Origin: a bacterium
GTDB taxonomy: Bacteria > JAAXHH01
Direction: 5' to 3'
Assembly: GCA_965240335.1 (NCBI GenBank)
Contig: CBDEKM010000008.1
Coordinates: 311,072 to 375,071 of the forward strand
Length of the DNA: 64,000 bases
A model generated the notes under the pieces. That model made no database searches and was not told where the DNA came from. It saw nothing but the letters and a program-made list of their open reading frames with translations. Both the position numbers and the translations under genes were made by a program. Positions 4,869 through 57,300 of the stretch are shown one piece after another; position 1 is the first letter of the stretch; each line of letters opens with the position of its first letter.

Positions 4869-5498
4869 ATGTCGAAGCAACGCCTGCACATATTCGCAGT
4901 TTCGCTGTGCTTCACCGCCGCACTGGCCTTCGCCTGCGCCGACGACGAAGGCAGCCCCACAGGGCCCACGGATCCCACCGATCCCACGGATCCCACCGAT
5001 CCCACGGGACCGGGAGAGGAAGAACTCATTACGACCATCGTGATCACCCTGACTCCGACTACCGGGGGAGCGCCAATCATCGCACGGTTCGCTGATCTGG
5101 ATGGCGAGGGAGGCAACCCGCCGGAGGTCGACGAGATCACGGTGTCCAAGAATACCACGTACGACGGTAGTATTGAGGTACTCGACGAATCCGTAACACC
5201 GGCGGAGGACATCACCGAAGAAGTGAAGGAAGAGGCGGAGAATCACCAGTTCTTCTACGAACCCCAGGGCGGCATATCGGACGCGGTCATCACCTACCGG
5301 GACATGGAATCCGACTACGGAACCAACATTGGCGCCGATCATCCCGTCGGGGTGAATTTCCGCATCGAGATTCTTCAGGCCGCCACGGCCGGCAAGTTAA
5401 GGGTAACCCTCAGCCACTACGACGAGCGGCCGAAGGACGGTCAGAATCCGAGCGATGAAACGGATATAGACGTGACGTTCGACGTGATCGTTGAGTAA
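4869..5498 (+). CDS. Lipoprotein with (PTD)5 linker, unknown function, co-operonic with TonB-dependent receptor
   Basis: Signal peptide plus lipobox-like LAFAC|ADD. 9-bp tandem repeat encodes PTDPTDPTDPTDPT. Acidic beta-rich C-terminal domain. Stop overlaps the receptor start. Confidence 0.6.
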   Translation: MSKQRLHIFAVSLCFTAALAFACADDEGSPTGPTDPTDPTDPTDPTGPGEEELITTIVITLTPTTGGAPIIARFADLDGEGGNPPEVDEITVSKNTTYDGSIEVLDESVTPAEDITEEVKEEAENHQFFYEPQGGISDAVITYRDMESDYGTNIGADHPVGVNFRIEILQAATAGKLRVTLSHYDERPKDGQNPSDETDIDVTFDVIVE

Positions 5499-7821
5499 GT
5501 TCACATTGCTGGCGATACTACTGGCATTCGCGGGGCCGGTCCATGGGGCCACGGTTACCGGCAAGGTACTGAACGAGGAAAGCGTTCCACTGCCGTCGGT
5601 GACCGTCCTCCTGTCAGCCCTGGAGATCGGAACATTCACCGGCGATAACGGGCTGTTTACCCTGGAAAACGTACCCCCGGGGAGACACGGGATCGAATTC
5701 CGGTTCGTAGGGTACCGAACGATCACGACCGAAGTCATCGTTTCCGAATTTCGGCCAACCGTGCTCGAAGTAAGAATGGAACCGGAACCCCTCGTCGGCG
5801 AAGAGGTCGTCGTGACCGGTGAACGGAACCTGGCGGGTGAACTCACCGGCTCGAGCCAGTCCGTTCTCGTGCTGCCGCCGTCGGCCCTGGAGGAAAGACG
5901 GGGCCAGACGCTGGGGGAGACCCTGGAATCCTTGCCCGGCGTATCCGCGCTGACCACGGGACCGGCCGTATCGAAACCCGTGCTGCGCGGGGTCCACAGT
6001 GCCCGCGTGCTGGTGCTCAACGCCGGGGTTGCGCAGGAGGGCCAGCAGTGGGGTGGTGACCACGCCCCGGAGATCGATCCCTTTTCACCGGCCAGAATCG
6101 AGGTGCTCAAAGGCGCTGCGGGCGTACAGTACGGCGTTGGCGCCATCGGCGGTGTCATTCGCATCGAACCGCCCGAACTGCCCGAGAACCCCGGAATCGG
6201 CGGCAGGATCAACACGAATATGTTTTCCAATAATCGCCAGGGGGCCGGTTCCGCCCTCGTGCAGGGCGCGTTTCGCCGTCTCCGGGGGCTCAAATGGCGC
6301 GTGCAGGGCAGCCTCCGGCGTGCGGGGGACGCCCGCGCGCCTTCCCACGTCATCCGGAATACCGGGTTCGACGAGCGGAACTATTCCGCCGCCCTGGGCC
6401 TGACGACGGACTGGATGGACACCGAAGCCTATTTCAGCCATTTCGGTACGTGGATCGGTATCTTCAAGGGTTCCCACATCGGCAACACCACGGACCTCGA
6501 ACGAACGATCGCCCGGGGCGACCCGGACATCGTGGGGTCCTTTACCTACGACATCGACAATCCGCGGCAGCGGGTGGATCACGATCTGCTTTCACTCCGA
6601 TCCAGGATAGGATTGAAAGGCACAGGCAACCTGGAATTGCGTTACGGCCAGCAGTACAACCGGAGGGAGGAGTGGGACTCCCACACCCGGGGAGGCGGCA
6701 CGCCGGCCAGGCCCGGGTTCGCCCAGGGTCTGCAGACCCACAGCGGCGATATGATCTACCATCATCCAAATCTGGGACGGTGGTACGGCAAGATCGGCGT
6801 CAGCGGCATGCGCCAACGCAACAGGCGATTCAGCACGGGGTTCCTGATCCCCGATTTCCTGGCCTATAATCTTGGCGTATTCGCCCTGGAATCCTGGACG
6901 AACGGGAAGGTTACGTTGGAAACGGGCGCCAGGTACGATTACCGCTGGATGGAAATCTACCCGAATGAAAGCACACGGGCCTCCGAGCGTGTCGTGGGCC
7001 GAACGCATACATACAGCAACGTGACCGGCGTCGTGGGGCTGATCTACCAGTTGTCGCCGACCCTGGCCGCCGCCGCGAACGTGGGCCGGGCGTGGCGCCC
7101 GCCCGGGGTGAACGAGCTTTACAGCCACGGCGTACACCACGGGACGGCGCAGTTCGAGGTAGGCGATACGGATCTGGAGACCGAGTCGAGCGTGAACACG
7201 GACCTTACCCTGCGGTACCAGGGTGAGCACGGCCGTGGTGAATTAGGGTTTTTCAGGTCGCAGTACGACAACTACATTTCACTGCTGCCGGCGGACGATC
7301 TCGTATTGACAATCCGCGGCGCGTTTCCTAAATTCACCTACATACAAACCAATGCCGTAATACAGGGTGTGGACGGCTACCTCGAGTACGATCTCGCGCG
7401 GTACCTGGACGTATACCTGTCCGCGTCCCTCGTCCGGGGTCGAGACACCTCGAAAGACCGTCCCCTTTACCAGATGCCGTCTACCCGGCTGATTGCCGGG
7501 CTGGATTTCCACCTGCCCACCGCGGGGCGTCTGCTCGAAGCGGGTGTCGGATTCGAAGGCCGCTTCGTTATGCGGCAGAACAGTTTTCCCAGGGACATCG
7601 ACTACGTGGATCCCCCGGGCGGTTACAGCCTCTTCGATGTCCACATGCACGGGGAGTTCGCCGTGGCCGACCAACCGGTGCGGATGCAGTTCGGGGTTCA
7701 CAACCTGTTCAATAACCGGTACCGTGACTACCTGAGCCGGTTCCGGTATTTCATAGACAATCCAGGACGGAATGTCACGTTCAGCCTGTCCGTTCCCTTC
7801 GGGCAGCCGATGGAGGACTAA
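5491..7821 (+). CDS. TonB-dependent outer-membrane receptor with N-terminal carboxypeptidase-regulatory-like domain
   Basis: 776 aa. Signal peptide, CarbopepD_reg-like fold (TGKVLNEE...LPSVTVLL), plug region (EEVVVTGER), 22-strand-barrel-like body, terminal aromatic ...SLSVPF. TTG start overlapping the upstream gene. Confidence 0.85.
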   Translation: MSKFTLLAILLAFAGPVHGATVTGKVLNEESVPLPSVTVLLSALEIGTFTGDNGLFTLENVPPGRHGIEFRFVGYRTITTEVIVSEFRPTVLEVRMEPEPLVGEEVVVTGERNLAGELTGSSQSVLVLPPSALEERRGQTLGETLESLPGVSALTTGPAVSKPVLRGVHSARVLVLNAGVAQEGQQWGGDHAPEIDPFSPARIEVLKGAAGVQYGVGAIGGVIRIEPPELPENPGIGGRINTNMFSNNRQGAGSALVQGAFRRLRGLKWRVQGSLRRAGDARAPSHVIRNTGFDERNYSAALGLTTDWMDTEAYFSHFGTWIGIFKGSHIGNTTDLERTIARGDPDIVGSFTYDIDNPRQRVDHDLLSLRSRIGLKGTGNLELRYGQQYNRREEWDSHTRGGGTPARPGFAQGLQTHSGDMIYHHPNLGRWYGKIGVSGMRQRNRRFSTGFLIPDFLAYNLGVFALESWTNGKVTLETGARYDYRWMEIYPNESTRASERVVGRTHTYSNVTGVVGLIYQLSPTLAAAANVGRAWRPPGVNELYSHGVHHGTAQFEVGDTDLETESSVNTDLTLRYQGEHGRGELGFFRSQYDNYISLLPADDLVLTIRGAFPKFTYIQTNAVIQGVDGYLEYDLARYLDVYLSASLVRGRDTSKDRPLYQMPSTRLIAGLDFHLPTAGRLLEAGVGFEGRFVMRQNSFPRDIDYVDPPGGYSLFDVHMHGEFAVADQPVRMQFGVHNLFNNRYRDYLSRFRYFIDNPGRNVTFSLSVPFGQPMED

Positions 7822-7826
7822 ACATA

Positions 7827-10091
7827 ATGTATAGTTGTCGCGTGATTCTGCGCGTCGTAGCCGCATGCTGTGTCACGGCTTTGCTGGCCGGCATGGCTGG
7901 CGGCACCGCTTCGGCGCAGGATCGGGAACTGGTCCCCCTGCGCATTCTGGAATCGCTGCACATGGACGGGGTGCTGGACGAGGATATTTGGCAGAACGCC
8001 CTGGCGGCCTCCGGTTTCACCCAGCAGCGTCCCGACGAGGGACAGCCGGCGTCCGAGCGGACGGAGGTGCGGGTCCTGTACAACGAACAGACCCTGTACA
8101 TCGGTTTGTGGGCCTACGATTCGGACCCCGCCCAGATCATCGCCACCCAGATGGCCCGGGACGGCGACCTGGCCGACGATGATTACTTCCAGGTCATCCT
8201 GGATACCTACCTGGACCGTCAGAACGGCATTCTCTTCGCCACCAACCCCGACGGCGCCCGCTACGATGCCCAGGTGCGTAACGAAGGCCGGTCCGAGGGC
8301 CGCTTCAATACCAACGTCCTGACGGACTGGAACGGCGTATGGGACGTGTACACCTCCCGGAACGAAGCGGGGTGGTACGCCGAGATGGCCATCCCCTGGA
8401 GCACGCTGCGATTCGAAGCCGGCGATGACGTGGACTTCGGGTTGAACCTGGAGCGCCAGGTCCGCCGCCGCAACGAGCAGTCCTTCTGGGCGCCGGTCAT
8501 CCGGCCCTTCAGCATATCCCAGGTGTCGGTGGCCGGGACCCTGTCGGGCATGAACCTTACGAAACACGCCCACCGCTACCTTCAGATCACGCCCTATTCC
8601 CTGGGCGGCGCCACGTGGACTTTCCAACCCGGCACGACCAAGCGGGACGATGATTTTGACGGCGGGGTGGACGTCAAGTACGGACTGTCCCAGAACCTGT
8701 CCCTCGACCTGACCTATAACACCGATTTCTCCCAGGTTGAAGTGGACGACGCGCAGGTCAACCTCACCCAGTTCAACCTGTTTTTCCCGGAAAAGCGCTC
8801 CTTCTTCCTGGAGAACGCCGGCCTGTTTCGCTTCGGCGTGGCCCGGGAGACGGAATTGTTCTACAGCCGCAACATCGGTCTGGCGCGCGATGGGTCCGGA
8901 ACGCTGAGACAGGTGCCGATTACCGGCGGCGGCCGTATGACGGGCAAGGCCGGGAGAACCAATCTCGGCCTGCTGCTCATGCGCACCGGCGACCAGCAAT
9001 TCGGCGACTTCAAGATCGACAACAACATCTATGCCGTGGCGCGATTAAGCCGGGACGTGGGCGAGAAATCGAATATCGGCCTCATTATGACCAACCAGCG
9101 GATCGGCGGTGGCGATTACAACCAGGCGGGCGGCGCCGATTTAAACCTGGCGATCGGTCCGAAGCTGGCCGTCAGCGGTTTCCTGGCCGGGACCAGGTAC
9201 CAGGAAGGCGAGAACAGCGAATCGGGTTTCGCGGGACGGCTTTGGTCGCGGTGGAACGGTCCGCTGTGGCAGTTCGAGGGGCTCTACATGGGCGTGTCCG
9301 AGTTCTTCAATCCCGGCATGGGTTTCTTCAGCCGACGGAGCCTGGCCCGGAATTTCGGCGGATTTCACGAGGTTTCCGCCCGCGCGTTTTTTACCCCCGA
9401 ACCCGACAACAGTATCGTTCGGAGGTATTTCCCCCACATCGTGCTGGGCGCGACTTTCGGAGACGACGGCACGCAGCTGACCCGAAGGGAACACTACCAT
9501 TTCGAGACTGTTCTTCACGGGGGGTGAACAGGCGGGGATCACCCTGGACCGCGCCTTCCGGCGAATCAGCGAGGACACGCGGCCCATCCTGGGCGTCAAG
9601 CTTCCCGCGGGCAACTACACGGACGCGTCTTCGCGCATGCATTTCACGACGAACCTGAGCAAACCCCTGTCCGCCGACTTTCGAACTCATTCGTGGGCCA
9701 GTACATAAACGGCGACCGGCGCTCGCTGAGTCTCGGGGGCGGATTACGCACCGGTTCGAAGTTCACGATCGGTCCCCGGTACGAGTTGAACGACGTGACG
9801 CTCACCGACGCCGGCCAATATGAAGCGGGAGGTCACCGCCCATCATCTTCGGGGTCAGGACGAGCTATTCCTTCTCGCCGGACCTGTCGCTCCGCGCGCT
9901 GGTGCAGTGGGACACCCAGCAGGACCGGTTCGTTTCGAACTTCCGGTTCAACTATATCATCAACCCCGGGAGCAACCTCTTCGTCGTGTACAACGAGACG
10001 GCGGGACAACGGGGAGATGACGGACACCCTGCTCGGCGATCCGCTGGACCGTACCCTGGTGGTCAAGCTGGCCTACCTGTTCGACCTGTAG
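7827..10091 (+). pseudogene. DUF5916 / CBM9-like outer-membrane protein gene, disrupted by at least 4 frameshifts in its last 600 bp
   Basis: Intact for 566 codons (7827-9527). The protein then continues in frame +1 after a G6 run at 9519-9524 (QAGITLDRAFRRISEDTRPILGVKLPAGNYTDASS...), back in frame 0 (GQYINGDRRSLSLGGGLRTGSKFTIGPRYELNDVTLTDAGQYEAGG), frame +2 (VQWDTQQDRFVSNFRFNYIINPGSNLFVVYNETAGQRGDDG), and frame 0 again (EMTDTLLGDPLDRTLVVKLAYLFDL*). Each segment is clearly protein-like. Confidence 0.55.
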
Positions 10092-10098
10092 GAGTCTC

Positions 10099-10458
10099 AT
10101 GAACGTACTCGGCGGCACACTCATGGGATGTTCGACCGATCCCCTGACCGGGTTCTACCGCGACGGCGCATGCAATACCGGGTCGGGCGACGCCGGTGTG
10201 CACGCGGTCTGTACGGTAATGACCGAAGCGTTCCTCGTCTTTTCCAAAGAAACCGGGAACGATCTCAGCACGCCCGTGCCCGCCTTCGGCTTCGAGGGAC
10301 TCAAACCCGGCGACCGCTGGTGCATCTGCGTAAACCGCTGGAAAGAGGCCTACGACGCGGGCGTGGCCCCACCGGTGGTAATGAGCGCCACCCACCTCAT
10401 GGCACTGGAATTCGTGTCGCTGGACGAACTGAAGGCCTGCGCGATGGACGAGGCGTAG
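10099..10458 (+). CDS. DUF2237 family protein
   Basis: 119 aa with the family's conserved motifs TGFYRDGxCNTG, GxHxVC, GNDLSTP, LKPGDRWCxC. Confidence 0.7.
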   Translation: MNVLGGTLMGCSTDPLTGFYRDGACNTGSGDAGVHAVCTVMTEAFLVFSKETGNDLSTPVPAFGFEGLKPGDRWCICVNRWKEAYDAGVAPPVVMSATHLMALEFVSLDELKACAMDEA

Positions 10459-10546
10459 GCAGAGTCCCGCGAACCGCTTGAGTCGGCGCGCGGGTTGTCT
10501 CGAGATTGGGCGCAGGTAATGATGTAAGTGGTTTTGATTTATTTTC

Positions 10547-10618
10547 TTGATTTTCCTGTGCGCGCACATTAGATTTCATCGCTTGATCGGCAAAAATCAT
10601 CGCCTGATCGGAAAAATC
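10547..10618 (+). promoter_or_regulatory. Promoter-like TTGATT-17-TAGATT followed by two tandem 21-bp direct repeats (ATCGCYTGATCGGNAAAAATC) in the rpmG leader
   Basis: TTGATT at 10547-10552, TAGATT at 10570-10575. Repeats at 10578-10598 and 10599-10618, about 35 nt upstream of the rpmG Shine-Dalgarno. Confidence 0.3.
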
Positions 10619-10652
10619 GGCATTCTGAAGATTCGTTCGTCGAGGAGTACAG

Positions 10653-10815
10653 CATGGCCAAGGGCAAAAACCGTGACCTGGTAAAAATGAAGAGCACGGA
10701 AAGCGCGCATTGCTACTACACCAAGAAAAACCGGCGTAACACGACCGCCCGCATCGAAATGAAGAAATACGATCCCACGCTGCGGCGGCACGTCATGTAC
10801 CGGGAGACGCGGTAG
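10653..10815 (+). CDS. rpmG: 50S ribosomal protein L33, with apparent +1 frameshift (one extra G in CTGGGT) after codon 9
   Basis: Strong SD (GAGGAG) 6 nt before ATG 10653 gives MAKGKNRDL. The rest of L33 ([44 protein letters not shown]) lies in the +1 frame and ends at 10815. Matches non-zinc L33 family members (MAKKGNRIQVILECTEH...YITTKNKKNT...LEIKKFNP). The in-frame reading instead terminates at 10737-10739. Confidence 0.7.
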
Positions 10816-10838
10816 CGGCGTTCCTGGAGGTTTACCCC

Positions 10839-11078
10839 ATGTCGAGAAAATGCAAGTTGACCGGAAAAGGACCCCTGGTCGGCTTCAACGTATCCCACGC
10901 CCATAACAAGACCAAGCGGCGTCAATATCCCAATCTCCAGCTGAAGCGTATCTACGTACCCGAACTGGGCCGCACGGTGCGCATCAAGATGTCCGTCAGC
11001 GCCCTGCGGACGGTCACGAAGATCGGGCTGATGCCTTTCCTGAAGAAACAGGGACTGCGGCTGAAGGACGTGCTGTAG
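10839..11078 (+). CDS. rpmB: 50S ribosomal protein L28
   Basis: 79 aa, [33 protein letters not shown]..., typical L28. GGAGG SD upstream. Confidence 0.85.
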
Positions 11079-11089
11079 CATCCGGTCTC

Positions 11090-11605
11090 ATGCCATCGAA
11101 GAGCGCCTCATTCCATAAATCCCGCGCCGCCGAGCGCGGACCCGTGGGAGTCGCCGTCGTAACGGTCAGCGATTCCCGCACACCGGAAACGGACGTCAAC
11201 GGCGATTACCTCCGGGCGCGCATCGAAGAAGCGGGCCACCGGGTCGCCGGCTACCGGCTGATCCGGGACGAACCGGACCAGGTTGAAGACGCCCTGGAAA
11301 GCTGCACCGGCGAAGACGTCCAGGTCGTGATTTTCAATGGGGGAACCGGCATCTCGCAGAGAGACCGGACCTTCGACGTGCTGAACCGCAGGCTGGAAAA
11401 GCCCCTGCCCGGGTTCGGCGAGATATTCCGCATGCTCAGCTACGAACAGGTCGGCGCGGCGGCCATGATGTCCCGCGCCACCGCGGGCGTTTACCGAAAT
11501 ACAGTCATTATCTCTACGCCCGGCTCCCCGGCCGCGGTGAAACTCGCATGGGAGAAACTGATCGTGACGGAAATCTCCCACATGGGCTGGGAACTTACCC
11601 GGTAA
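11090..11605 (+). CDS. Molybdenum cofactor biosynthesis protein MogA/MoaB family
   Basis: 171 aa MoCF_biosynth-like: [11 protein letters not shown]...GGTGISQRD...[11 protein letters not shown]. Confidence 0.7.
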
Positions 11606-27460: not shown

Positions 27461-27505
27461 GCATTGAGCCACGATAAGGATTCTACGCGACCAGGACTCC
27501 ACAAT

Positions 27506-37544: not shown

Positions 37545-38264
37545 ATGAAGAAAGTCCTGTTGCTCGGTGCGTCCGGACTCATCGCGCCGCACATCATCCC
37601 GTCGCTGGAGAAGGACTACGACCTGAAACTGGCCGACATCAAGGAACATCCGGACGGTAAACCCATTCTCAACGTGGATGTCCGTGATTACGGCCAGGTC
37701 CGCGAAGCCGTGGAGGGTGTGGACGCCGTGATGAACTTCACGGTGCTGCGCCACGACGACGTCCTCAGCTTCCAGGTGAACACCATCGGAGCCTGGAACG
37801 TCATGAGGGCGGCGGCCGACGCGGGGATCAAGAAAGTAATCCACTCCGGTCCCGCCCAGACCCTTGAGTGGTATACCCACGATACGGACATCCCCGTCGA
37901 CGCGCCCGACGCTCCGTCCACCGACTACTATTTCATCACCAAGCACATGAGCAACGAGATCGTCAGGAGCTTCGCCCGGCGCCATGAGATCCACACGGTC
38001 TGCTACCTGTTCCAGGGCCTGGCGCCCCGGCCGACCCAGCCCGCCAGAAAGACGTCGACCCGGGATTTCCTCATCATATACGACGATCTTGCCGTGGCCT
38101 GCCGCCAGGGACTCGAGCTCTCCTCGGTGCCTGGCTTCTACCAGGTCTTCAACCTCCACAGCCATTACGGACCGGGAAAGTACAGCCTCGAGAAGGCGGA
38201 GCGCATCCTGGGGTATGCTCCGCAGGAGAAGTGGTGGGACTGGAAACGTAGGCCGGCAGGCTAA
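37545..38264 (+). CDS. NAD-dependent epimerase/dehydratase family protein (atypical SDR)
   Basis: 239 aa. MKKVLLLGASGLIAPHII..., YxxxK-like YYFITKHMSNE. Confidence 0.6.
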   Translation: MKKVLLLGASGLIAPHIIPSLEKDYDLKLADIKEHPDGKPILNVDVRDYGQVREAVEGVDAVMNFTVLRHDDVLSFQVNTIGAWNVMRAAADAGIKKVIHSGPAQTLEWYTHDTDIPVDAPDAPSTDYYFITKHMSNEIVRSFARRHEIHTVCYLFQGLAPRPTQPARKTSTRDFLIIYDDLAVACRQGLELSSVPGFYQVFNLHSHYGPGKYSLEKAERILGYAPQEKWWDWKRRPAG

Positions 38265-44702: not shown

Positions 44703-45326
44703 ATTGAAAGGAGGGAGGAATCTGAAATCACGAAAAGAGCCATATTTGTCTATACATCGGGAAAACGATCAAATAAGAGAAGAATCATAAAAAAGTTTTT
44801 GACTGAAGCATATTTACGGTAATAAATACTTGATTTAACAATGGGGAGCTGGTAAACTATCCCATGATTAATCCCACACTTGACAAAAATACAAAAAAGT
44901 TATTGACTTTGGCGCAGTTACGGGATTATTTACTTGATTTTGTAGCACGGTCCATATATACTAAGTCTTGTTTTCCGAAGAGGTTTCAGTCACGGAAAGC
45001 AAAATTGACACACGGTGAAGTAAGCGATACCCTTGCACCTCTTGGAGAGGTTGCAGGATAACGGGTAACGGTTTTCGTATGTTTGCAGTTGCGGTAATGA
45101 CCTTAAGATCATTCAGGTGTAAGAGCGTTTTACTCCACAACGCGCACGTCATTCTAAGGAGAATCAATATATGTGTGTTAGTCCGGTGCGGCCTGAAGCT
45201 AAACACGGTTCTCATGTTGCATTCTCCCGACGGGAATCCCGGTCTGATCATGCCGGCTTTTCCGCAAAGCGTATAGAAATGTGTGATCATCCATCCTTTC
45301 TTATAAGGTTTAAGGAGAATTTACAT

Positions 45327-48300
45327 ATGCGGTACATTTCCAGGTTCAAGAACTCTATACGTGCTTCGAGCGTTTACAGCCTGGCGTTCATGTTTGTGTT
45401 CGCCTTAGCTGCGAACCTGACGACGTACGAAGAAGCCCACGCACAGCGTTCGATTCAGCTGATTGTGGATGCGCCGGACCCTGCGGAATTGATGGAGACC
45501 GGTACTGCGACTACCGTTACGCTGTCAGCTGAGCATGTTGTAATAGATGAGGATTTAGCACTACCGACCGAAGCGATCACTATTACAGTAAAGTTACCCG
45601 TGCTCGAGGGAATGAATCCGGATTATGCCATCACAGACACTGATGGTACCGATGACGGAATGGTGGAGTTAACGCTCACTGGGGCTAGTTCCAATACGGT
45701 TAACTTCACCATAACCCCCCGTGACGATTCTGTCTTTGAAGCGGATAGGACAATTTCATTAACTGGTGAGGCCTCGGGATATGTCGTGCTTGCCGCCAAA
45801 ATCAAACTGCTGGATGACGATCATCAGCTGGAATTGTCAGTCGAACCATCTACGGTAAATGAGGATAAGGGCGAGCAGACGGTGATCGTGACCGCAAACC
45901 TCACTGAAGACGCGCCGTTAGCTACCACTGTGCCGTTGACGATATCTCCTGCGTCGACGTCGTTTTATACTCTTAGCGCTACCGCGCTGTCGATTCAGAT
46001 ATCGGCAGGTTCGAGTTCAGGTACGGCTAAGTTTAACATCACGCCTGTCGACAACGACACTTACGATGGTAACCAGAAGATCAAGGTTGATCTTAATGAT
46101 GCTCAGAGCAATCTGGCACTTAGAGAAGCGAAAGAGATCGTGCTGGCGGACGACGAAAGCCCACCCGCCTTGGATCTCTCCGTATCTCCTTCCAGTATTA
46201 AAGAGGCCAATGGCGCTCAGACAGTGACGGTGACCGCGAAGTTGACAGATGGCGTGCTGTTGTCGTCATCTACAGTGGTCACAGTCAATATCGCTGCCAA
46301 TGACGATCAGTATACTCTGAGCACCAAAGTACTTGCAATAACGATCAGGGCCAAACGTGATTCGGGGAGTGCTAGGCTTACTATTACTCCTGAGCCGGAT
46401 GGAACTTACGAAAGGCACATGGCCATTGGTCTGACCGGTAGAGCGACCATATTGGATGACGTAAACATCAGCGATACTGCGACGGTAACGTTGTTGGATG
46501 ATGATCAGGAAGTTACACTGTCGGTGTCGCCTGCGACGGTAAAAGGCGCAGCGGCGGAGGTAGTCATCACGGCCTTGTTGGATCGGCCAGCCAGGGATGC
46601 CAGTGGTTTCGACGTACCCATAACCATCGGTGAAGCAAATCCCTCCGCATATTCTTTGTCAGCTGAAACTGATGTCGGGCTATCCGGTAATGGATTGACG
46701 ATCACGGTTCCGACTGGATCCTCGATGCGATCAGTGACGGTGACTGTTACACCGGTTGATGTATATGCCGCCGGTAACGCGCAATACAATCGCGATGTAG
46801 AGATTGGCGTTGATGTCGCTGACGCTGGCCCGCTGGGGAGATCAGCCAAGATCACGCTGAAGGACTCGATCGACCGGCCGAAGCTGGAACTGGCGGTGAC
46901 GCCGGAAACTGTGATGGAAGAGCCGGCGATGGACGACGATGCCAATACTGATGGCGTTCAAACTGAATTAACCATCACGGCTACGCTGGACGGCGGGACT
47001 TTTCAAGGCGATTTTGGTGTAGTTGTAGAAATCTCCGAGGATGATGATTTCTATACCGTGTCTTCTAAAGAAGTAACCTTGACTCCCGCCGGTTCTTCGT
47101 CTGGACCATGGACGGGAACAGTGATGGTCACGCCTGATCCGGACAGCAAGTTCGAGGCGTACCAGACCATCTCCTTCTCGGCCAAAGCGACCGAAGCGAG
47201 TCCACCTGACGGAAGTGACGCGATCGAGTTAACGGCAAGCGATACGGTTCAGTTGCAGGACAACGATCATCACGTGACCTTGGCTGTAGAGCCTTCGTCA
47301 GTGACCGAAGAAGGCGGAGAACAGACGGTGATCGTGACCGCAGAACTGACCGCTCCTGCACCGATAGCGACCACAGTGCCGGTGACCTTGTCGCCCACGA
47401 CCTCATCGTTCTACAGTCTGGACGCTCATGTACTGTCAATCCAGATTGGAGCCGGTGCGAGTTCCGGTACGGCGAAGCTGAACGTCACGCCAGTCGACAA
47501 CAACACCTACAATGGTACACAGAAGATCAAGGTTGACATTGCAGACTCGAGTCCGCTGGTACTTCGCGCTACTAAAGAGATCGCGGTGACCGACGACGAG
47601 AATCTACCGGTGATGTCATTGTCGGTGGATCCGGATGAGATCACCGAGGCCGGTGGCGCGCAGACGGTGAGCGTAACGGCTAAGCTGATGGACGGCGTGA
47701 TACTGTCGACGCCCACGGTGGTGACGGTGAAGGTAGTCGACGATGACGAGCAGTATGCGCTGAGCTCGAAAGAGTTCGCGATCACGATTCCTGCCAACCA
47801 GGCAACCATGTCGGCGAACCTGCTCATTACACCTGAACCCGATGGGACCTACGAATCCCACCTGGGTATCGGTCTGTCGGCCGAAGCGACCATCAAGGAC
47901 GGCGATGATGACGTCAAGCTCAGCGCTGCCACGACGGTAACGCTGCTGGACGATGATCAGGAGGTTACGCTGTCAGTGTCGCCTGCGACGGTGAAGGGCG
48001 AAGCGACAGATGTAGTCATCACGGCCACACTGGACCGGCCAGCACGAGGCGTTAACGGTCTCACGGTTCCCGTAATGATCGCGACGGGTGGTAGCCATAG
48101 CTTGACAGATGAAGATGGAAATGCCATAGCTAATGGCCTCGTGAACATCGTGGTCCCAACGAGTGCTTCCGCACAGTCGATTACGGTTACGGTGACACCT
48201 GCCGGTGATTACGCCACCGGAACCGGCTACAATCGGGACGTGGGAATTGACGTTACGGTCACCAGTGCCAGCAACCTGCTGGGCCGGGAGGCGACGATCA

Positions 48301-51300
48301 CGTTGAAGGACTCGATCGACCTGCCGAAGTTGGAACTGGCGGTGACGCCGGAAACTGTGATGGAAGAGCCGGCGATGGACGACGATGCCAATACTGATGG
48401 CGTTCAAACTGAATTGACCATCACCGCCACACTGGAAGGCGGAACCTTTGGGACTGATTTCGAGGTAGTCGTAGAAATCTCCGAGAATGAGGATTTCTAT
48501 ACCTTATCCGCAAACGAGGTGACCTTTACGATTAGCGCGAATGGCACGTCTGGAACCGGAACGGTGAACATCACGCCTGACCCGGACAGCAAGTTCGAGG
48601 CGTACCAGACGATCTCGTTCTCGGCCAAGGCGACTGAAGATGTTACTGAAGATGCGATCGAGTTGACGGCAAGCGATACGGTTCAGTTGCAGGACAACGA
48701 TCATCACGTGACCCTGTCCGTAGAGCCTTCGTCAGTGACCGAGGATGGCGGAGAGCAGACGGTGATCGTGACTGCGGAACTGACCGCTCCTGCGCCGATA
48801 GCGACCACGGTGCCGGTGACCTTGTCGCCCACGACTTCGTCGTTCTACAGTCTGGACGCTCATGCGTTGGCGATTCAGATTGGAGCCGGTTCGAGTTCCG
48901 GTACGGCGAAGCTGAACGTCACGCCAGTCGACAACGACACCTACAATGGCACCCAGAAGATCAAGGTTGACATTGCAGACTCGAGTCCGCTGGTACTTCG
49001 CGCATCTAAAGAGATCGTGGTGACCGACGACGAGAATCTGCCGGTGATGTCTTTGTCGGTGGATCCGGAGGAGATCACCGAGGCCGATGGCGCGCAGACG
49101 GTGAGCGTGACGGCGAAGCTGATGGACGGCGTGCTGCTGTCGACGCCCACGGTTGTGACGGTGAAGGTGGCCGACGATGACGAGCAGTACGCACTGAGTT
49201 CGAAAGAGTTCGCGATCACGATTCCTGCCAACCAGGCAACCATGTCGGCGAACCTGGTCATTACACCTGAGCCCGATGGGACCTACGAATCCCACATGGG
49301 TATCGGTCTATCGGCCGAAGCGACCATCAAGGACGGCGATGATGACGTCAAGCTCAGCGCTGCCGCGACGGTAACGTTGCTGGACGATGATCAGGAGGTC
49401 ACGCTGTCGGTGACTCCAGGTACTGTGAAGGGCGACGCGACAGAGGTTATCATCACGGCCACGCTGGACCGGCCGGCTCGGGGCAACAACGGTCTCACCG
49501 TACCCGTAATGATCGGGGCTTCAGGTGACAGCGGTTATAGTTGGTCAGCTGAAGGTGTAACCAGCCCAAGTCCTGGCGATGTGGTGAACATCGTGGTCCC
49601 AACGAGTGCCTCTGAGCAATCCATGGCGGTGACGATTACTCCTACTGGTGATTACGCCACCGGAACCGGCTACAATCGGGACGTGGGAATTGACGTTACG
49701 GTCACCAGTGCCAGCAACCTGCTGGGCCGGGAGGCGACGATCACGTTGAAGGACTCGATCGACCTGCCGAAGTTGGAACTGGCGGTGACGCCGGAAACTG
49801 TGATGGAAGAGCCGGCGATGGACGACGATGCCAATACTGATGGCGTTCAAACTGAATTGACCATCACCGCCACACTGGAAGGCGGAACCTTTGGGACTGA
49901 TTTCGAGGTAGTCGTAGAAATCTCCGAGAATGAGGATTTCTATACCTTATCCGCAAACGAGGTGACCTTTACGATTAGCGCGAATGGCACGTCTGGAACC
50001 GGAACGGTGAACATCACGCCTGACCCGGACAGCAAGTTCGAGGCGTACCAGACGATCTCGTTCTCGGCCAAGGCGACTGAAGATGTTACTGAAGATGCGA
50101 TCGAGTTGACGGCAAGCGATACGGTTCAGTTGCAGGACAACGATCATCACGTGACCCTGTCCGTAGAGCCTTCGTCAGTGACCGAGGATGGCGGAGAGCA
50201 GACGGTGATCGTGACTGCGGAACTGACCGCTCCTGCGCCGATAGCGACCACGGTGCCATTGACCTTGTCGCCCACGACTTCGTCGTTCTACAGTCTGGAC
50301 GCTCATGCGCTGGCGATTCAGATTGGAGCCGGATCGAGTACCGGCACGGCGAAGCTGAACGTCACGCCGGTCGACAACGACACCTACAATGGCACCCAGA
50401 AGATCAAGGTTGACATTGCAGACTCGAGTCCGCTGGTACTTCGCGCTTCTAAAGAGATCGCGGTGACCGACGACGAGAATCTGCCTGTGATGTCTTTGTC
50501 AGTGGATCCGGAAGAGATCAACGAGGCCGATGGCGCTCAGTCGGTGAGCGTAACGGCTAAGCTGATGGACGGCGTGCTGCTGCAGACGCCCACGGTTGTG
50601 ACGGTGAAGGTGGCCGACGATGACGAGCAGTACGCACTGAGCTCGAAAGAGTTCGCGATCACGATTCCTGCCAATCAGGAATCCATGTCTGCGAACCTGG
50701 TCATTACGCCGATACCGGATGGAGCGTACGAAGCTCACATGGGTATCGGTCTGTCGGCCGAAGCAACCATCAAGGACGGCGATGATGACGTCAAGCTCAG
50801 CGCTACCGCGACGGTAAAGCTGCTGGACGATGATCAGGAGATCACGCTGGCGGTGTCGACCGCGACGGTGAAGGGCAAGGCGACGGACGTAGCCATCACG
50901 GCTATGCTGGACCGGCCGGCCCGCGGTACTAACGGTCTCACCGTACCCGTAATGATCGGTGCCGACGGCGATGATCAGTATACTTTGTCGTCTGAAGGTA
51001 CCCCCAGTCTCGCACCAGGTGGCACGGTGAACATCGTGGTCGCCACAGGTACATCCGCGAAATCGGTAACTGTAACGGTGACGCCAGCCGAGACCTATGT
51101 CGCAACTGACATGAATTACGATCGTGATGTAGGGATCGATGTTACGATCGCTGATGGCACAGCTTTGCTGGGCCGGTCGACGAAGATCACGCTGAACGAC
51201 TCGATTGATCTGCCGAAGCTGGAACTGGCGGTGACGCCGGATACTGTGATGGAAGAGCCAGCAGTGGATGCTGATAATGATGCAGCTAATGGCGTTCAAA

Positions 51301-54300
51301 CGCGGCTGACCATCATGGCCACGCTGGACGGTGGAACCTTTACGAACAATTTCGATATTGTCGTAGAAGTTTCACAGGATACTGATTTCTACAGCGTGTC
51401 CTTGGAAGAGGTAACATTAACTGGTTCTGCTAACGGACCCTGGACCGGAACGGTGGATATCACGCCTGATCCGGACAGCAAGTTCGAGGCGTACCAGACA
51501 ATATCGTTCTCTGCCGAAGCGACCGAGCAGAATCCTCCTGCGGGAAGCGATGCGATCGAGTTGACGGCAAGCGATAAAGTGCAGTTACGTGACAATGATC
51601 ATCACGTGACGCTGGCTGTAGATCCAGCTTCAGTAAATGAAGAAGACGGAGTACAAACGGTAGAGGTGACGGCGATGTTGACCGCACCTGCGCCTGTAGC
51701 TACCACGGTGCCGGTGACGTTGTCGCCTGCGACCTCGTCGTACTACAGTCTGGACGCTCATGCACTGGCAATAGAGATCGGGGCCGGTTCGAGTGAAGGC
51801 ACGAAGGAACTTAACATCACACCGGTCGACAACGACACCTACAATGGCACCCAGAAGATCAAGGTTGACATTGCAGATTCAAGTCCCCTGGTACTTCGCG
51901 GTTCGAAAGAGATCTCGGTAATTGACGACGAAAGCCTGCCGGTGCTCGCACTGACAGTGGATCCGTCCGAAGTTAACGAGGGTGGTGGCGCTCAGTCAGT
52001 AAGCGTGACTGCTGAACTGGTCGACGGTGTCGTGTTGCAGACGCCTACAATCGTAACCGTGAAGGTGGACGCCGATGACGATCAGTATGCGTTGAGTTCA
52101 AAAGAGTTTGCGATTACGATTCCAGCCAATCGGGATTCGAGATCCGCGGACTTGATTATTACTCCTAAGTCTGATGGATTGTTCGAAGCTCACATGGCAA
52201 TAGGTCTGTCGGCAGAAACAACCATCAAAGACGGCGATGATGACGTAGATCTCAGCGCTGCAGCGACGGTAACGCTGTTGGACGATGATCATGAAGTCAC
52301 GCTATCGGTTTCACCTGGTGAGGTGTCGGAAGTTGGCGGAAGCTTTCCTGTGACTGTAAAGGCAAGATTGAATAGTCCCGCAAAGAGTGACCTCACGATA
52401 CCGGTTGAGATCGAAACATATGATGAGAATGCGAATTCTCATCCTATCGGGTTTACCGTGACGGATACTGACAACACACCGAATGACGGTATGGTTGATA
52501 TTTCCATTGCCGCTGGAAAGTCAGAGGCGTCAACTACGGTGATGATCGCCGCGACATACAATGCCGATCATACCGAAAACGCTGTCATTAACGTAACAGG
52601 AGGAGATATCGCATTATCGGTTAGACCAACAACAATCTTGATCAGAGACTACGAACAGGTCTCTATACAGTTATTGGCTAGCCATCCCAGTATCACTGAA
52701 GCCGGAGGTTTACAGACTGTTGAGATCACGGCTGAAATAACACCCAATGCAATCGGTGATGATGTAGCTATCAGTCTAGCAGTCGGTGGACAGGCGACAC
52801 TGAATGAAGATTTCGGCGTTAGTGGTTTGCTGGAAATCGAAATCGGTGCCGGTAGTACCGAGGGATCGACGGAACTTACCTTCATACCGGTTGACGATTT
52901 TGTGAATGAGTTCAACGAGACGATTACGGTTTCTGGTTCAACAGTTGGCGGACATAGTGTTAGCTCGGTATCCATTGTGTTGGCTGATAACAATGAGATA
53001 CCACTGGCTAGTATCTCGGCGCCTTCAGTTGAACTTAGCGAAGCTGATGATGCCGTAACCGAGATCGCAGTAACTGCTACGCTGGCTGGAACGAGTGGTG
53101 AACCTATTAATGTAGTGCTTGATATTAATGGTTCGGCCACGGCCGGTGTTGACTATGAGGTTAGTGGAGATCTCAGGTTCTCGATAAATCCCGGAGACAG
53201 CAGTTACACGGCTAATGTCGCAATCACGGTCTTGGATGATGCGCTCTATGAGGGTAATGAGACCGTTGTGATCGAAGCCAGCGCGTCCTTGGGAGATCTT
53301 GAACTACCCAATAGATCTCAACCATTGAGATATATGATTATTGACAACGATTCGGCACCGATGATTGCCCTCTCAGTGGATGTAGAAACAATAAATGAGG
53401 GTGACGAAGCGACGGATGTGACCATCACTGCCACCGCATCCAGTGCTAGTGCCGTCAACATTCCAATCACGTTGGCCAAGCCTGGTACGGCCGTAATTGG
53501 TGAAGACTTCATGGTCTCGTCCGAACAGGAAGATTTCATCATAATCGCAGGCGAAACTACAGCAACGAAGGTAGTGACGATCACGCCGATCGATGATGAA
53601 ATCTATGAAGGTGACGAGCACTTCATGGTCAACGGTACGGTACCGGGTTCCGACGGTGAAATAGACGTCGACGGCACGATGATCACGCTGACTGACAACG
53701 ATGATGTGCCGACGGTTGCACTGACCGTGGAACCCGATATGATTGCTGAGGGTAGTGAAGTCGAATTCACGATCACGGCCACGCCGTCTCACATGAGTTC
53801 CATGCCGATTACAATCGTACTGGACAAGTCGGGTGGATCGGCTACGCTTGGCGAGGATTTCGAGATTGTAGCGGCTACCGAAGGCGAGTACGTGATCGAA
53901 GCGATGGATTCGTCCGCTACGAAGATGGTCACGCTTTCGGCTATAGCCGATATGCTCTACGAGCAGGAAGAGATCATCGTTGTGGGTGGAATGTCAATGG
54001 CAGGTGATTCGGAAGGCATAGCGGTTATGACTGACGAGATCACGCTGACCGACGGCGATCCGATGCCGATGGTCACGCTGATGGCGGACATGGAGTCGAT
54101 CAATGAGAACGGCGAGGCCGTGGACGTAACGGTTACGGCCATGCTTTCCGGTTTGAGTTCCATGCCCATCACAGTGGAACTGGCCAAGTCCGGTTCGGCC
54201 ACGAAGGGCGAGGACTACACCGTAACCGGCGAAGGTGCAATCACGGTTGCTGCCGGCGATGAAATGGGTATGACGATACTGACGATCGTTCCGGTAGATG

Positions 54301-57300
54301 ACGATGTCTACGAACGCGATGAGATGATTGTCATAGGCGGTACGGCCGGCGATGAAATAGCCCAAGCCGCGTCGATCACCTTGGTGGACGACGATCCGAT
54401 GCCGATGGTGGTACTGATGACGGACGTGGTGTCTATCACCGAGAACGGTGGAGCCCAGGAAGTGACGGTAACGGCAACGCTGTCCGGCTTGAGTTCTTTG
54501 CCCATCACGGTTGAACTGGCCAAGTCCGGTTCGGCCACGAAGGACGAGGACTACACCGTAACCGGCGAAGGTTCCATCACGGTTGCTGCCGGCGATGAAA
54601 TGGGTATGACGATACTGACGATCGCCCCGGTAGATGATGATGTCTACGAACGCGATGAGATGATTGTCATAGGCGGTACGGCCGGCGATGAAATAGCCCA
54701 GGCCGCGTCGATCACCCTGGTAGACGACGAAACGAAGCCGATAGTGGAACTGATGACGGACGTGGTGTCTATCACCGAAGACAGTGGAGCCCAGGAAGTG
54801 ACGGTAACGGCAACGCTGTCCGGCTTGAGTTCTATGCCCATCACGGTTGAACTGGCCAAGTCCGGTTCGGCCACGAAGGGCGAGGACTACACCGTGACCG
54901 GCGAAGGTTCAATCACGGTTGCTGCCGGCGAAGAAATGGGTATGACAATTCTGACGATCGCCCCGGTAGATGATGTTGTCTACGAACGCGATGAGATGAT
55001 TGTCATAGGCGGTACGGCGGCCGGTGACGAAGTGGCTACGACAGCATCGATCACGCTGGTCGACGACGAAACCATGCCTACGATTGCCCTTTCAGTAGAC
55101 ACTGATTCCGTGATGGAGGATGGCGGCGATCAGGAGGTCGTGGTTACCGCGACGGCATCCGGCTTGAGTTCCATGCCCATCGATGTTGTACTGGCGAAGT
55201 CCGGTACGGCCATTAAGGGCGAGGATTACACTGTGACCGGCGATGGTACGATCACGGTCGCGGCTCTTGCGATCGACGGCGTTACGACGCTGACAATCAC
55301 ACCTGTAGACGACGACGTCTATGAGAATGATGAGACGATCGTGGTTGGCGGTGAAGGTGTGTTGGAATCGGCAACGGTGACGCTGGTTGATGACGAAACC
55401 ATGCCTATGTTCACGCTGATGGCGGATCCGTCGGCGGTCATGGAGAATGCCGGTCCTACGCCTGTCGTAGTGACGGCGACCGCTTCGGGACTTAGTTCGA
55501 TGCCCATGACCCTGACGCTCCTTCCGTTACCGGATCAAGGCACCATTACGATTGGTGAAGACGCGGGCGTGACGGGTGATCTGTTCATCACAGTTGTCCC
55601 CGGTGCGCTGGAAGGCAGCACGACACTGACGGCATTGGTTATTGACGACGATATCTACGAGGGCGACGAGTACGTTGTGATCGTTGGAAATATAGGTGAT
55701 ATGGTCACGCCATCCATTACACTGACCATCATCGATGACGAAATGCAGCCGACGGTCACGCTGTCGCTGGATCCCGAGGCCGTGGAAGAAGGTGGCGGAG
55801 CGCAGCCCTTCACCGTATCGGGTGAAGCTTCCGGCAGAAGTTCAATGGACATGACAGTCATGCTCGGTCCGTTGCCGACGAGTACGGTAACGCTGGGTGA
55901 AGACGGCATAGTCGATGGAACCATGTCGTTCGTCATATCCGCGCTGGAGACCGAAGGCAGCACGACGCTGACGGCCGTGCCAGCGGATGACGATCTCTAC
56001 GAGACGACGGAGTACCTGGTCGTCGGCGGTAGTGTGAACGGTGTACCTACTGCCAACGCGGTGACGCTGGCGATCATGGACAACGACTCGCCGGACGTAG
56101 CGTTGAGCGTGAGTCCGACAGCTATTCGTGAAGACGGCGGCGCCCAGACGGTCACCGTGGAAGTGGTGATGTCAGGTATACCAGTACCCGTACCGACAGA
56201 TATTTCGCTGGCCCTGTCGGGTACGGCCGGTAACGCCGATTACACCATGTCCGGTACGCCGACTCTGCAGATTGCCGCCGGTGAAACGACAGCGTCGACG
56301 CAGTTGACTTTCGCGGTTGTTCCCGACGATATCTACGAGCCAAGTAACGAGACCATCGTACTAACGGCGAATTGGAACGCCACGAATATCGGTTCAGCTA
56401 CAATTAACGTGATCGACGATTACGCTCCGCCTTCGGTAATTAGCGCGCTTCCCGCGATATCATTGGAAGCCGGTGATTCGAGGCAAATGGATGTGGCTGG
56501 TACTTTCAGCGGCCGGGTTCTGGTGTTCGCGGCAACATCTTCGGATGTCGGCATAGCCACTGCAACGCTTTCTGGATCGGCACTGACGATCGAGGGAGTG
56601 CGCAAGGGTGCGGCGCGGGTCACGGTCACGGCGACTAATGACGCGTCGTCCGCGAGTTACGATATAGATGTAACCGTCACGGCAATTGCTGCAGAGCGGG
56701 AAGTCTATACCGACATCCTGGCGGCTATGGCACGGAGCATCATGTCGAGCGTCTCGCAGACGATCGGCGGTCGGTTCTCCGTTGGCGCAGCGGAACGTCA
56801 GATCGCGCTGGCCAACAGGCGTGTGGACGGAATGGCGGCCGGTTTGGAAGCCATGATCAGCCTGTCCGGTGCTCAGTCGACAAGAAAGTACGGTATCACA
56901 GATGATACCACGAATCGGCTTAGCAGGCAGCCGGTCTCCACCCGTGAACTGATGCGCGGTACGTCCTTCTACTACGCCCTCGACGATGCACCTCAGGGCG
57001 GTACGAACGGCGGATTGAGCTTCACGATCTGGGGAGCTGGTGACTGGAATGCCTTCGAAGGTGCGCATGATGTGGGCACCAGTTACGACGGAACGGTGAC
57101 CTCCGGCTATCTCGGTATCGATGTATCGAAGACCGCCAGCTGGATCGCCGGTGTGGCTGTCGGACGTACCATGGGTACTTCGGACTACGATGTAACCGTC
57201 ACTGACGGAACGTTGGAAGCCACCCTGAACAGTGTGTATCCTTACGTACACTGGACGGGTCCCGGTTGCTGCATCGAAATCTGGGCTATCGGTGGTTTCG

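Follow-up and report, generated by a model that had tools for sequence, protein, structure and literature searches.

Is a conserved gene that is interrupted by frameshifts in a public assembly also broken in the organism from which the DNA came? The question is raised by a DUF5916/CBM9-like gene within a 64,000-nucleotide stretch of a bacterial contig (CBDEKM010000008.1, assembly GCA_965240335.1), referred to here as the window and numbered from its first base. The gene matches the Pfam families PF19313 (1.6e-21) and PF06452 (2.7e-05), and members of the DUF5916/CBM9-like family are expected to be encoded by a single open reading frame (ORF) of ~730–790 amino acids (aa). The recorded gene is not: its ORF stops early, and the remaining protein can be traced in other frames to position 10091. 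An original prediction, made from the letters of the window, had read the damage as five single-base frameshifts spread over this gene and the downstream ribosomal gene rpmG, and had offered as explanations either a localised assembly error or a decaying locus with a paralogue of ribosomal protein L33. The frameshifts that we find number six and all lie within the DUF5916 gene, and the six extra bases are probably a local consensus or merging artefact, in which two near-identical alleles were collapsed, rather than a sign of gene decay.

Six private insertions in the DUF5916 gene

A nucleotide alignment to 24 orthologous loci (denoted here by L numbers), the kind of comparison proposed in the original prediction, contains six 1-bp insertions private to the window, at approximately 9506, 9679, 9690, 9819, 9843, and 9997. 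Each inserted base is absent from all 24 relatives, which are 80–90% identical to the window, and the same alignment contains no window-private deletion in the DUF5916 gene. The gene is open end to end in 23 of the 24 loci, including an intact 752-aa ortholog at L022. Along the recorded sequence, the reading frame follows the path 0 → 1 → 2 → 0 → 1 → 2 → 0. The gene is thus broken, as had been predicted, but by six insertions rather than four frame changes; the lower count arose because the pairs at 9679/9690 and 9819/9843 leave frame segments of ~10 and ~24 nt. The first shift had been placed in a run of six G residues (G6), whereas it lies at 9506, where the window reads GAGACTG and orthologs read GAA or GAG followed by CTG. 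The same G6 run is found, in frame, at L010, a locus on the chromosome of a metagenome-assembled genome (MAG; OZ252103.1), and other orthologs read CGGGGG there, a synonymous ACC/ACG change.

Deleting a single base at each of the six sites yields one stop-free ORF of 752 aa that is 90.7% identical to the L010 ortholog, and 98.5% identical to it over the last 202 aa. The reconstructed protein has 6607 homologs, which among those listed cover 94–100% of it, and orthologs of 749–779 aa are 80–87% identical to it over 99–100% of its length. The correction changes little in Pfam searches, with a DUF5916 score of 84 bits as against 77 before it and the same best-matching stretch; the profile says little about the C-terminus, for which full-length homolog coverage is the better evidence. 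The truncated product of the uncorrected gene is identical to a protein in the public record, P0009, which comes from one contig of 405,297 bp.

The damage is also sharply local. The six insertions lie within 492 bp of the 2265-bp gene (P = 0.002), and no frame-breaking private indel was found in ~17 kb of other aligned coding sequence (P ~1e-7) when positions 1–19.6 kb of the window were compared with up to 25 relatives; the other consistent indels in this region are all intergenic or at gene boundaries. The gene map is compact, and its only unexplained hole, of 571 bp, is the frameshifted tail of the DUF5916 gene. Among the genes checked in the window no other split gene was found, and adjacent same-strand ORF pairs elsewhere are complete, separate proteins. 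These results rest on ortholog alignment, the gene map, and Pfam checks; a scan of the whole window for the phase of third-codon-position GC content was dropped because it is too noisy to detect frameshifts at 59% GC, and an intact 13-kb ORF also switched phase in it. The uneven distribution of errors claimed in the original prediction is borne out, as are the two long intact ORFs to which it pointed, of 12.9 kb (45171–58121) and 6.1 kb (27464–33526).

A mosaic tract and a two-codon pattern

All six insertions fall inside a 618-bp tract that, unlike its flanks, is nearly identical to L010 (Table 1). Identity between the window and L010 is 87.0% over 7950–9505, 96.1% over 9506–10000 (a figure in which the misaligned insertion sites count as mismatches), and 98.9% over 10001–10091, and it falls to ~82% directly after the stop codon. 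Within the tract, the differences comprise the six sites, two substitutions beside sites 2 and 3, and five single substitutions, with no others. In a four-way alignment the window carries the allele of L001 and/or L013 at four of the five single substitutions, and the fifth (10083) matches other orthologs. Window-private substitutions number zero in the tract, compared with 23 in the 1556 bp upstream in the same gene. L010 itself is not discordant here: between the 5′ part and the tract, its identity goes from 91.9% to 94.3% against L001 and from 90.0% to 90.6% against L013; the unusual sequence is therefore that of the window. Within 1–19.6 kb, the only other stretch with at least 96.5% identity to any of the 25 relatives is rpmB, which is universally conserved.

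Mosaicism is also seen in a relative, upstream of this gene. In L010 positions 6801–9600, orthologous to approximately 5500–7800 of the window and encoding a TonB-dependent receptor, L010 matches L001 at 99% identity over part of the receptor gene but L017 at only 74–77%, while all three are 90–96% alike downstream. This natural mosaicism points to allelic replacement of the receptor gene among co-existing lineages.

At all six sites, the four bases that stand in place of a codon read as two codons seen in orthologs and joined together: GAG+GAA, TTT+TTC, ATT+ATC, CAA+AAT, CAT+CAC, and GAG+GAA. Five of the six are synonymous third-position transitions. When all possible single-base insertions in the tract were enumerated, 22.6% mimicked a synonymous third-position allele pair with both members seen in orthologs, giving P = 0.003 for at least five of six sites under random insertion. 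This test was designed after the pattern had been seen, and may be taken as supportive rather than decisive.

A consensus of two alleles could account for these observations as follows. The 3′ end of the DUF5916 gene (9477–10094) would represent a pile-up of two near-identical alleles, one very close to an OZ252103.1-like lineage and the other contributed by a co-occurring population, by the lineage of the contig itself, or by the end of an overlapping contig, with the pile-up arising during consensus computation, assembly polishing, or contig merging. Differences between the alleles, mostly at synonymous third positions, would have been aligned as an insertion plus a deletion and not as a mismatch, and the consensus would have kept both bases, turning GAG/GAA into GAGA, TTT/TTC into TTTC, and so on. 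Since each such merge adds one base, six of them would produce six frame changes and leave the last 31 codons in the frame in which the gene began. In the organism itself, the DUF5916 gene would most probably be intact and encode ~752 aa.

The spectrum of events fits this proposal. All six are +1 insertions, in a tract with neither deletions nor window-private substitutions. Natural substitution-to-indel ratios in bacterial mutation-accumulation studies range from 5 to 20 to 1, and at such ratios six indels before any substitution have a probability of ~2e-5 to 1e-8. A two-allele consensus would be a single cause for the confinement of the damage, for a tract that looks foreign, for the exclusive occurrence of insertions, and for the match to allele pairs.

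Errors of this kind have a precedent. When an assembly is collapsed, allelic variants that lie close together displace the alignment of reads, and the indel errors that result truncate ORFs; phasing removes them (PMC8445201). The window resembles such collapsed-haplotype or collapsed-strain assemblies, exemplified by Trypanosoma brucei Tb427 (PMC8445201), in that small indels truncate ORFs at polymorphic sites and the effect is local; the Tb427-type errors vanish once the alleles are separated (PMC8445201). It differs from them in being a metagenome-assembled bacterial contig, in that all events are +1, and in that the two alleles are deduced from ortholog variation and the mosaic tract rather than from reads.

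Of the two options in the original prediction, the localised assembly error is thus the better supported, although it is not of the homopolymer type, since no long run is lengthened at any of the six sites and G6 is not at fault. The window shares with nanopore, 454, or Ion Torrent homopolymer errors the single-base frameshifts that split a gene in an otherwise good assembly; in contrast to those errors, the six sites include no long homopolymer, G6 is correct, and the events are concentrated in 492 bp rather than scattered over every homopolymer of the window.

Two specific error types were considered and rejected. Homopolymer error was set aside on the grounds that G6 is the same in L010 and that no insertion lengthens a run longer than two. 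As to a motif- or methylation-specific error, sites 1 and 6 share the change CGAAC to CGAGAC, but CGAAC at 9682–9686 is unaltered and no motif is common to the other sites.

Several points weigh against a merged-allele origin. Such insertions would be hard to produce if the contig stems from a de Bruijn assembly of short reads alone that was neither polished, gap-filled, nor merged. The tract itself could be real, because recombination mosaics are natural in these lineages, as in the receptor gene, where L010 is 99% identical to L001 and ~76% identical to L017. The match of the sites to allele pairs was tested post hoc, with a P value that is moderate, and at sites 2 and 3 neither inferred allele is the L010 codon. 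In addition, a separate 1-bp deletion lies 12 nt away in the same gene of L019, and the DUF5916 region is therefore not immune to frameshifts or errors in other assemblies.

The L019 lesion (JAPOOT010000312.1) merits a description of its own. It aligns to approximately 9516–9520 of the window and is a complex 1-bp deletion in the DUF5916 ortholog, ACCGGGGGC → ACAGGGGC, and the product ends prematurely close to the residue at which that of the window does. L019 is 96–99% identical to L002, L004, and L008 over most of this ortholog, with one 120-bp segment at 85%, and there is no mosaic break at the deletion.

Exact look-up of the neighbouring proteins and the fragment ORFs returned one contig only, present in NCBI and ENA but not in Logan, and revealed no independent assembly of the same strain. 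A scan of metagenomes at the Joint Genome Institute (JGI), with a pattern tolerating the presence or absence of insertions 4 and 5, gave no hits, and a protein search found no JGI relative above 71% identity.

In practice, the interruption of the DUF5916 gene is best handled as a probable assembly error that six deletions would correct, and should not be counted as loss of the gene in a symbiont lineage associated with sponges or corals. In the quality control of genomes, collapsed or merged alleles have a recognisable signature in +1 insertions that are closely packed at synonymous sites, within a short tract that abruptly resembles another genome. Ortholog comparison alone detects it, without reads.

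Real insertions, random errors, and recoding

The alternative that survives best, which we nevertheless regard as unlikely, is a genuine and very recent pseudogene. A 618-bp tract would have been imported from an OZ252103.1-like donor by homologous recombination, after which six real +1 insertions would have arisen in the 3′ end of the gene, perhaps all at once through error-prone repair or recombination, leaving a 566-aa product with a dead C-terminus. The frameshifted sequence is, after all, the public record, in which the 566-aa P0009 is entered; recombination mosaics occur naturally in the clade; a short-read-only assembly would not easily invent insertions; and L019 is also frameshifted in the same gene (at ~9518), which hints that loss of the gene may be tolerated. 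The locus likewise resembles the pseudogenes of host-associated, genome-reducing symbionts, in which a conserved gene bears several frameshifts while its neighbours are intact.

The details of the damage argue against this origin. Bacterial pseudogenes show a deletion bias, and here all six events are 1-bp insertions. They occur without any private substitution in the tract, they spare the upstream 1.68 kb, which would be equally neutral in a dead gene (P = 0.002), and the inserted bases reproduce alternative synonymous alleles. The gene is moreover intact in nearly all orthologs, and the listed distant homologs span 94–100% of the full-length query. Neutral decay would leave substitutions alongside the indels, deletions at least as frequent as insertions, and lesions spread over the gene, a signature that the locus does not show. 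From known symbiont pseudogenes it differs by the lack of deletion bias and of accompanying substitutions, by the undecayed 5′ 1.68 kb, and by insertions at synonymous polymorphic positions within a foreign-looking tract. A tract of ~0.6 kb with sharp boundaries and ~99% identity to another species-level genome is what homologous recombination (gene conversion) leaves, and similar mosaics occur between relatives; recombination alone, however, creates no insertions, and the same signal is expected from a chimeric or collapsed assembly.

Residual random long-read error appears quite improbable. The tract would then be a patch from one or a few uncorrected long reads, introduced by hybrid gap-filling or at a low-pass read end; it would show the error profile of raw reads, in which insertions dominate, and its match to polymorphic sites would be coincidental. 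An insertion-only spectrum outside homopolymers, with sharp bounds, is in keeping with such a patch, as is a tract whose lineage differs from that of its flanks, as a recruited foreign read would. Random errors, on the other hand, should not spell ortholog alleles at third codon positions in five or six of six cases (P ~0.003), nor should they leave the same 618 bp free of substitution and deletion errors. In any case, this explanation is a sub-type of artefact and makes the same practical prediction.

It is hardly credible that the insertions are real and stem from a single event, namely homeologous recombination of a 618-bp OZ252103.1-like tract in which heteroduplex mismatches kept both alleles in tandem (GAG/GAA becoming GAGA). 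If true, recombination between diverged bacterial lineages would leave a mutational signature that has not been described, and would here have killed a conserved outer-membrane-type gene in one step; should the insertions be proven real, the pattern would be worth a second look as a recombination-linked mutational event.

Functional recoding or diversification, whether by programmed ribosomal frameshifting at six sites or by mutagenesis of the C-terminus by a diversity-generating retroelement (DGR), has virtually no chance of being correct and is in effect refuted already by the orthologs: no shift is required in any of the 24, there is no conserved recoding signal, and six independent events in one mRNA would give a negligible amount of full-length product. 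All six events touch an adenine relative to L010, superficially like the adenine mutagenesis of DGRs, but these make substitutions and not +1 insertions, no second (template) copy of 9450–10100 exists in the 64-kb window, and no reverse transcriptase was found among the annotated ORFs (not every gene in the window being annotated), nor among the flanking genes, which encode the TonB-dependent receptor, DUF2237, L33, L28, and MoaB-like proteins.

rpmG and the surrounding genes

The rpmG gene had been predicted to carry an extra G (as CTGGGT) after codon 9. It is intact: it begins ATG GCC AAG GGC AAA AAC CGT GAC CTG GTA AAA ATG AAG, so that codons 9 and 10 read CTG GTA, and the string CTGGGT does not occur within 10000–11500. 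The ORF is uninterrupted, aligns without gaps to its orthologs, and matches the L33 profile at E = 6.5e-16 over positions 2–47 of 47. An identical 53-aa L33 protein is on record from the source contig, within a cluster of 53-aa L33 proteins. The ATG is preceded by a ribosome-binding site, GAGGAG, 7 nt upstream, rpmB follows 23 nt downstream, and no second L33-like sequence is present in the 64-kb window. With rpmG intact, there is neither an L33 pseudogene nor a completeness issue, and the idea of a decaying locus loses its main interest. No essential ribosomal gene is missing or pseudogenised, no second L33 copy need be sought, and completeness estimates are unaffected.

Two minor observations concern the same gene. 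A 21-bp unit (TCATCGCCTGATCGGCAAAAA) is tandemly duplicated at 10576–10618 (2.1 copies, 91% match), within the leader or promoter region ~40 nt ahead of rpmG, and the unit is single-copy in L010, L001, and L013, where it appears as a 21-column alignment gap. The 90%-identity protein cluster of the 53-aa L33s also lists KDO transferases of 422–438 aa from Pseudoalteromonas ulvae, which looks like a database clustering oddity.

The genes around the locus form a compact and conserved row on the + strand (Table 1), with the same order in the related contigs L001 and L002 and in ~20 genome loci from sponge- or coral-associated MAGs labelled Latescibacterota or Gemmatimonadota. The order DUF2237–L33–L28–MoaB is identical in L001, L002, and the window.

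Table 1 Features of the DUF5916 locus, in window coordinates
Feature	Position	Strand	Remarks
TonB-dependent receptor gene	5491-7821	+	
DUF5916/CBM9-like gene	7827-10091	+	PF19313, PF06452; contains six 1-bp insertions
Truncated ORF as called from the record	7827-9527	+	566 aa; ends in TGA just after the G6 run
Mosaic tract, 618 bp	9477-10094		~99% identical to L010 (OZ252103.1) with the six insertions set aside; flanks ~85-87%
Insertion 1, GAGA	9504-9507	+	One Glu codon; orthologs GAG (18), GAA (6)
G6 run	9519-9524	+	No frameshift here; run shared with L010, where it is in frame
Insertion 2, TTTC	9679-9682	+	Orthologs TTC (11), TTT (3), ATC (3), others
Insertion 3, ATTC	9689-9692	+	One Ile codon; orthologs ATC (20), ATT (1); L010 AAC
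Insertion 4, CAAT	9816-9819	+	One codon; overlaps CAA (L010, 1) and AAT (3 orthologs)
Insertion 5, CATC	9841-9844	+	One His codon; orthologs CAC (17), CAT (7)
Insertion 6, GAGA	9995-9998	+	One Glu codon; orthologs GAG (19), GAA (5)
DUF2237 gene	10099-10458	+	Intact; between the DUF5916 gene and rpmG, order as in relatives
rpmG (ribosomal protein L33)	10654-10815	+	Intact, 53 aa; PF00471
rpmB (ribosomal protein L28)	10839-11078	+	Intact
Molybdopterin-binding (MoaB-like) protein gene	11090-11605	+	
M28 peptidase gene	next in row after the MoaB-like gene	+	

Elsewhere in the window, a repetitive CCGATCCCAC motif at 4985–5015, inside an ORF at 4869–5498 that has no Pfam match, shows a net length difference of +1 (once +2) relative to all six aligning relatives, which are 67–80% identical. 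Alignment noise is the probable cause in this low-complexity, variable segment, the ORF being open and its orthologs of similar size (197–212 aa). Two tandem paralogs of the NAD-dependent epimerase/dehydratase family, at 36771–37511 and 37545–38264, lie in the same frame 33 nt apart, and both match their Pfam profile from position 1 and stop at profile position 167–176 of 240. They are probably short paralogs, with C-terminal truncation as an alternative. Of the two long ORFs, that at 45171–58121 encodes 4316 aa with a single Calx-beta domain as its sole Pfam match at E ≤ 1e-5, and that at 27464–33526 encodes 2020 aa in which leucine-rich repeats and Big_2 Ig-like domains are numerous; the two products have the look of surface proteins of a eukaryote-like or adhesin type.

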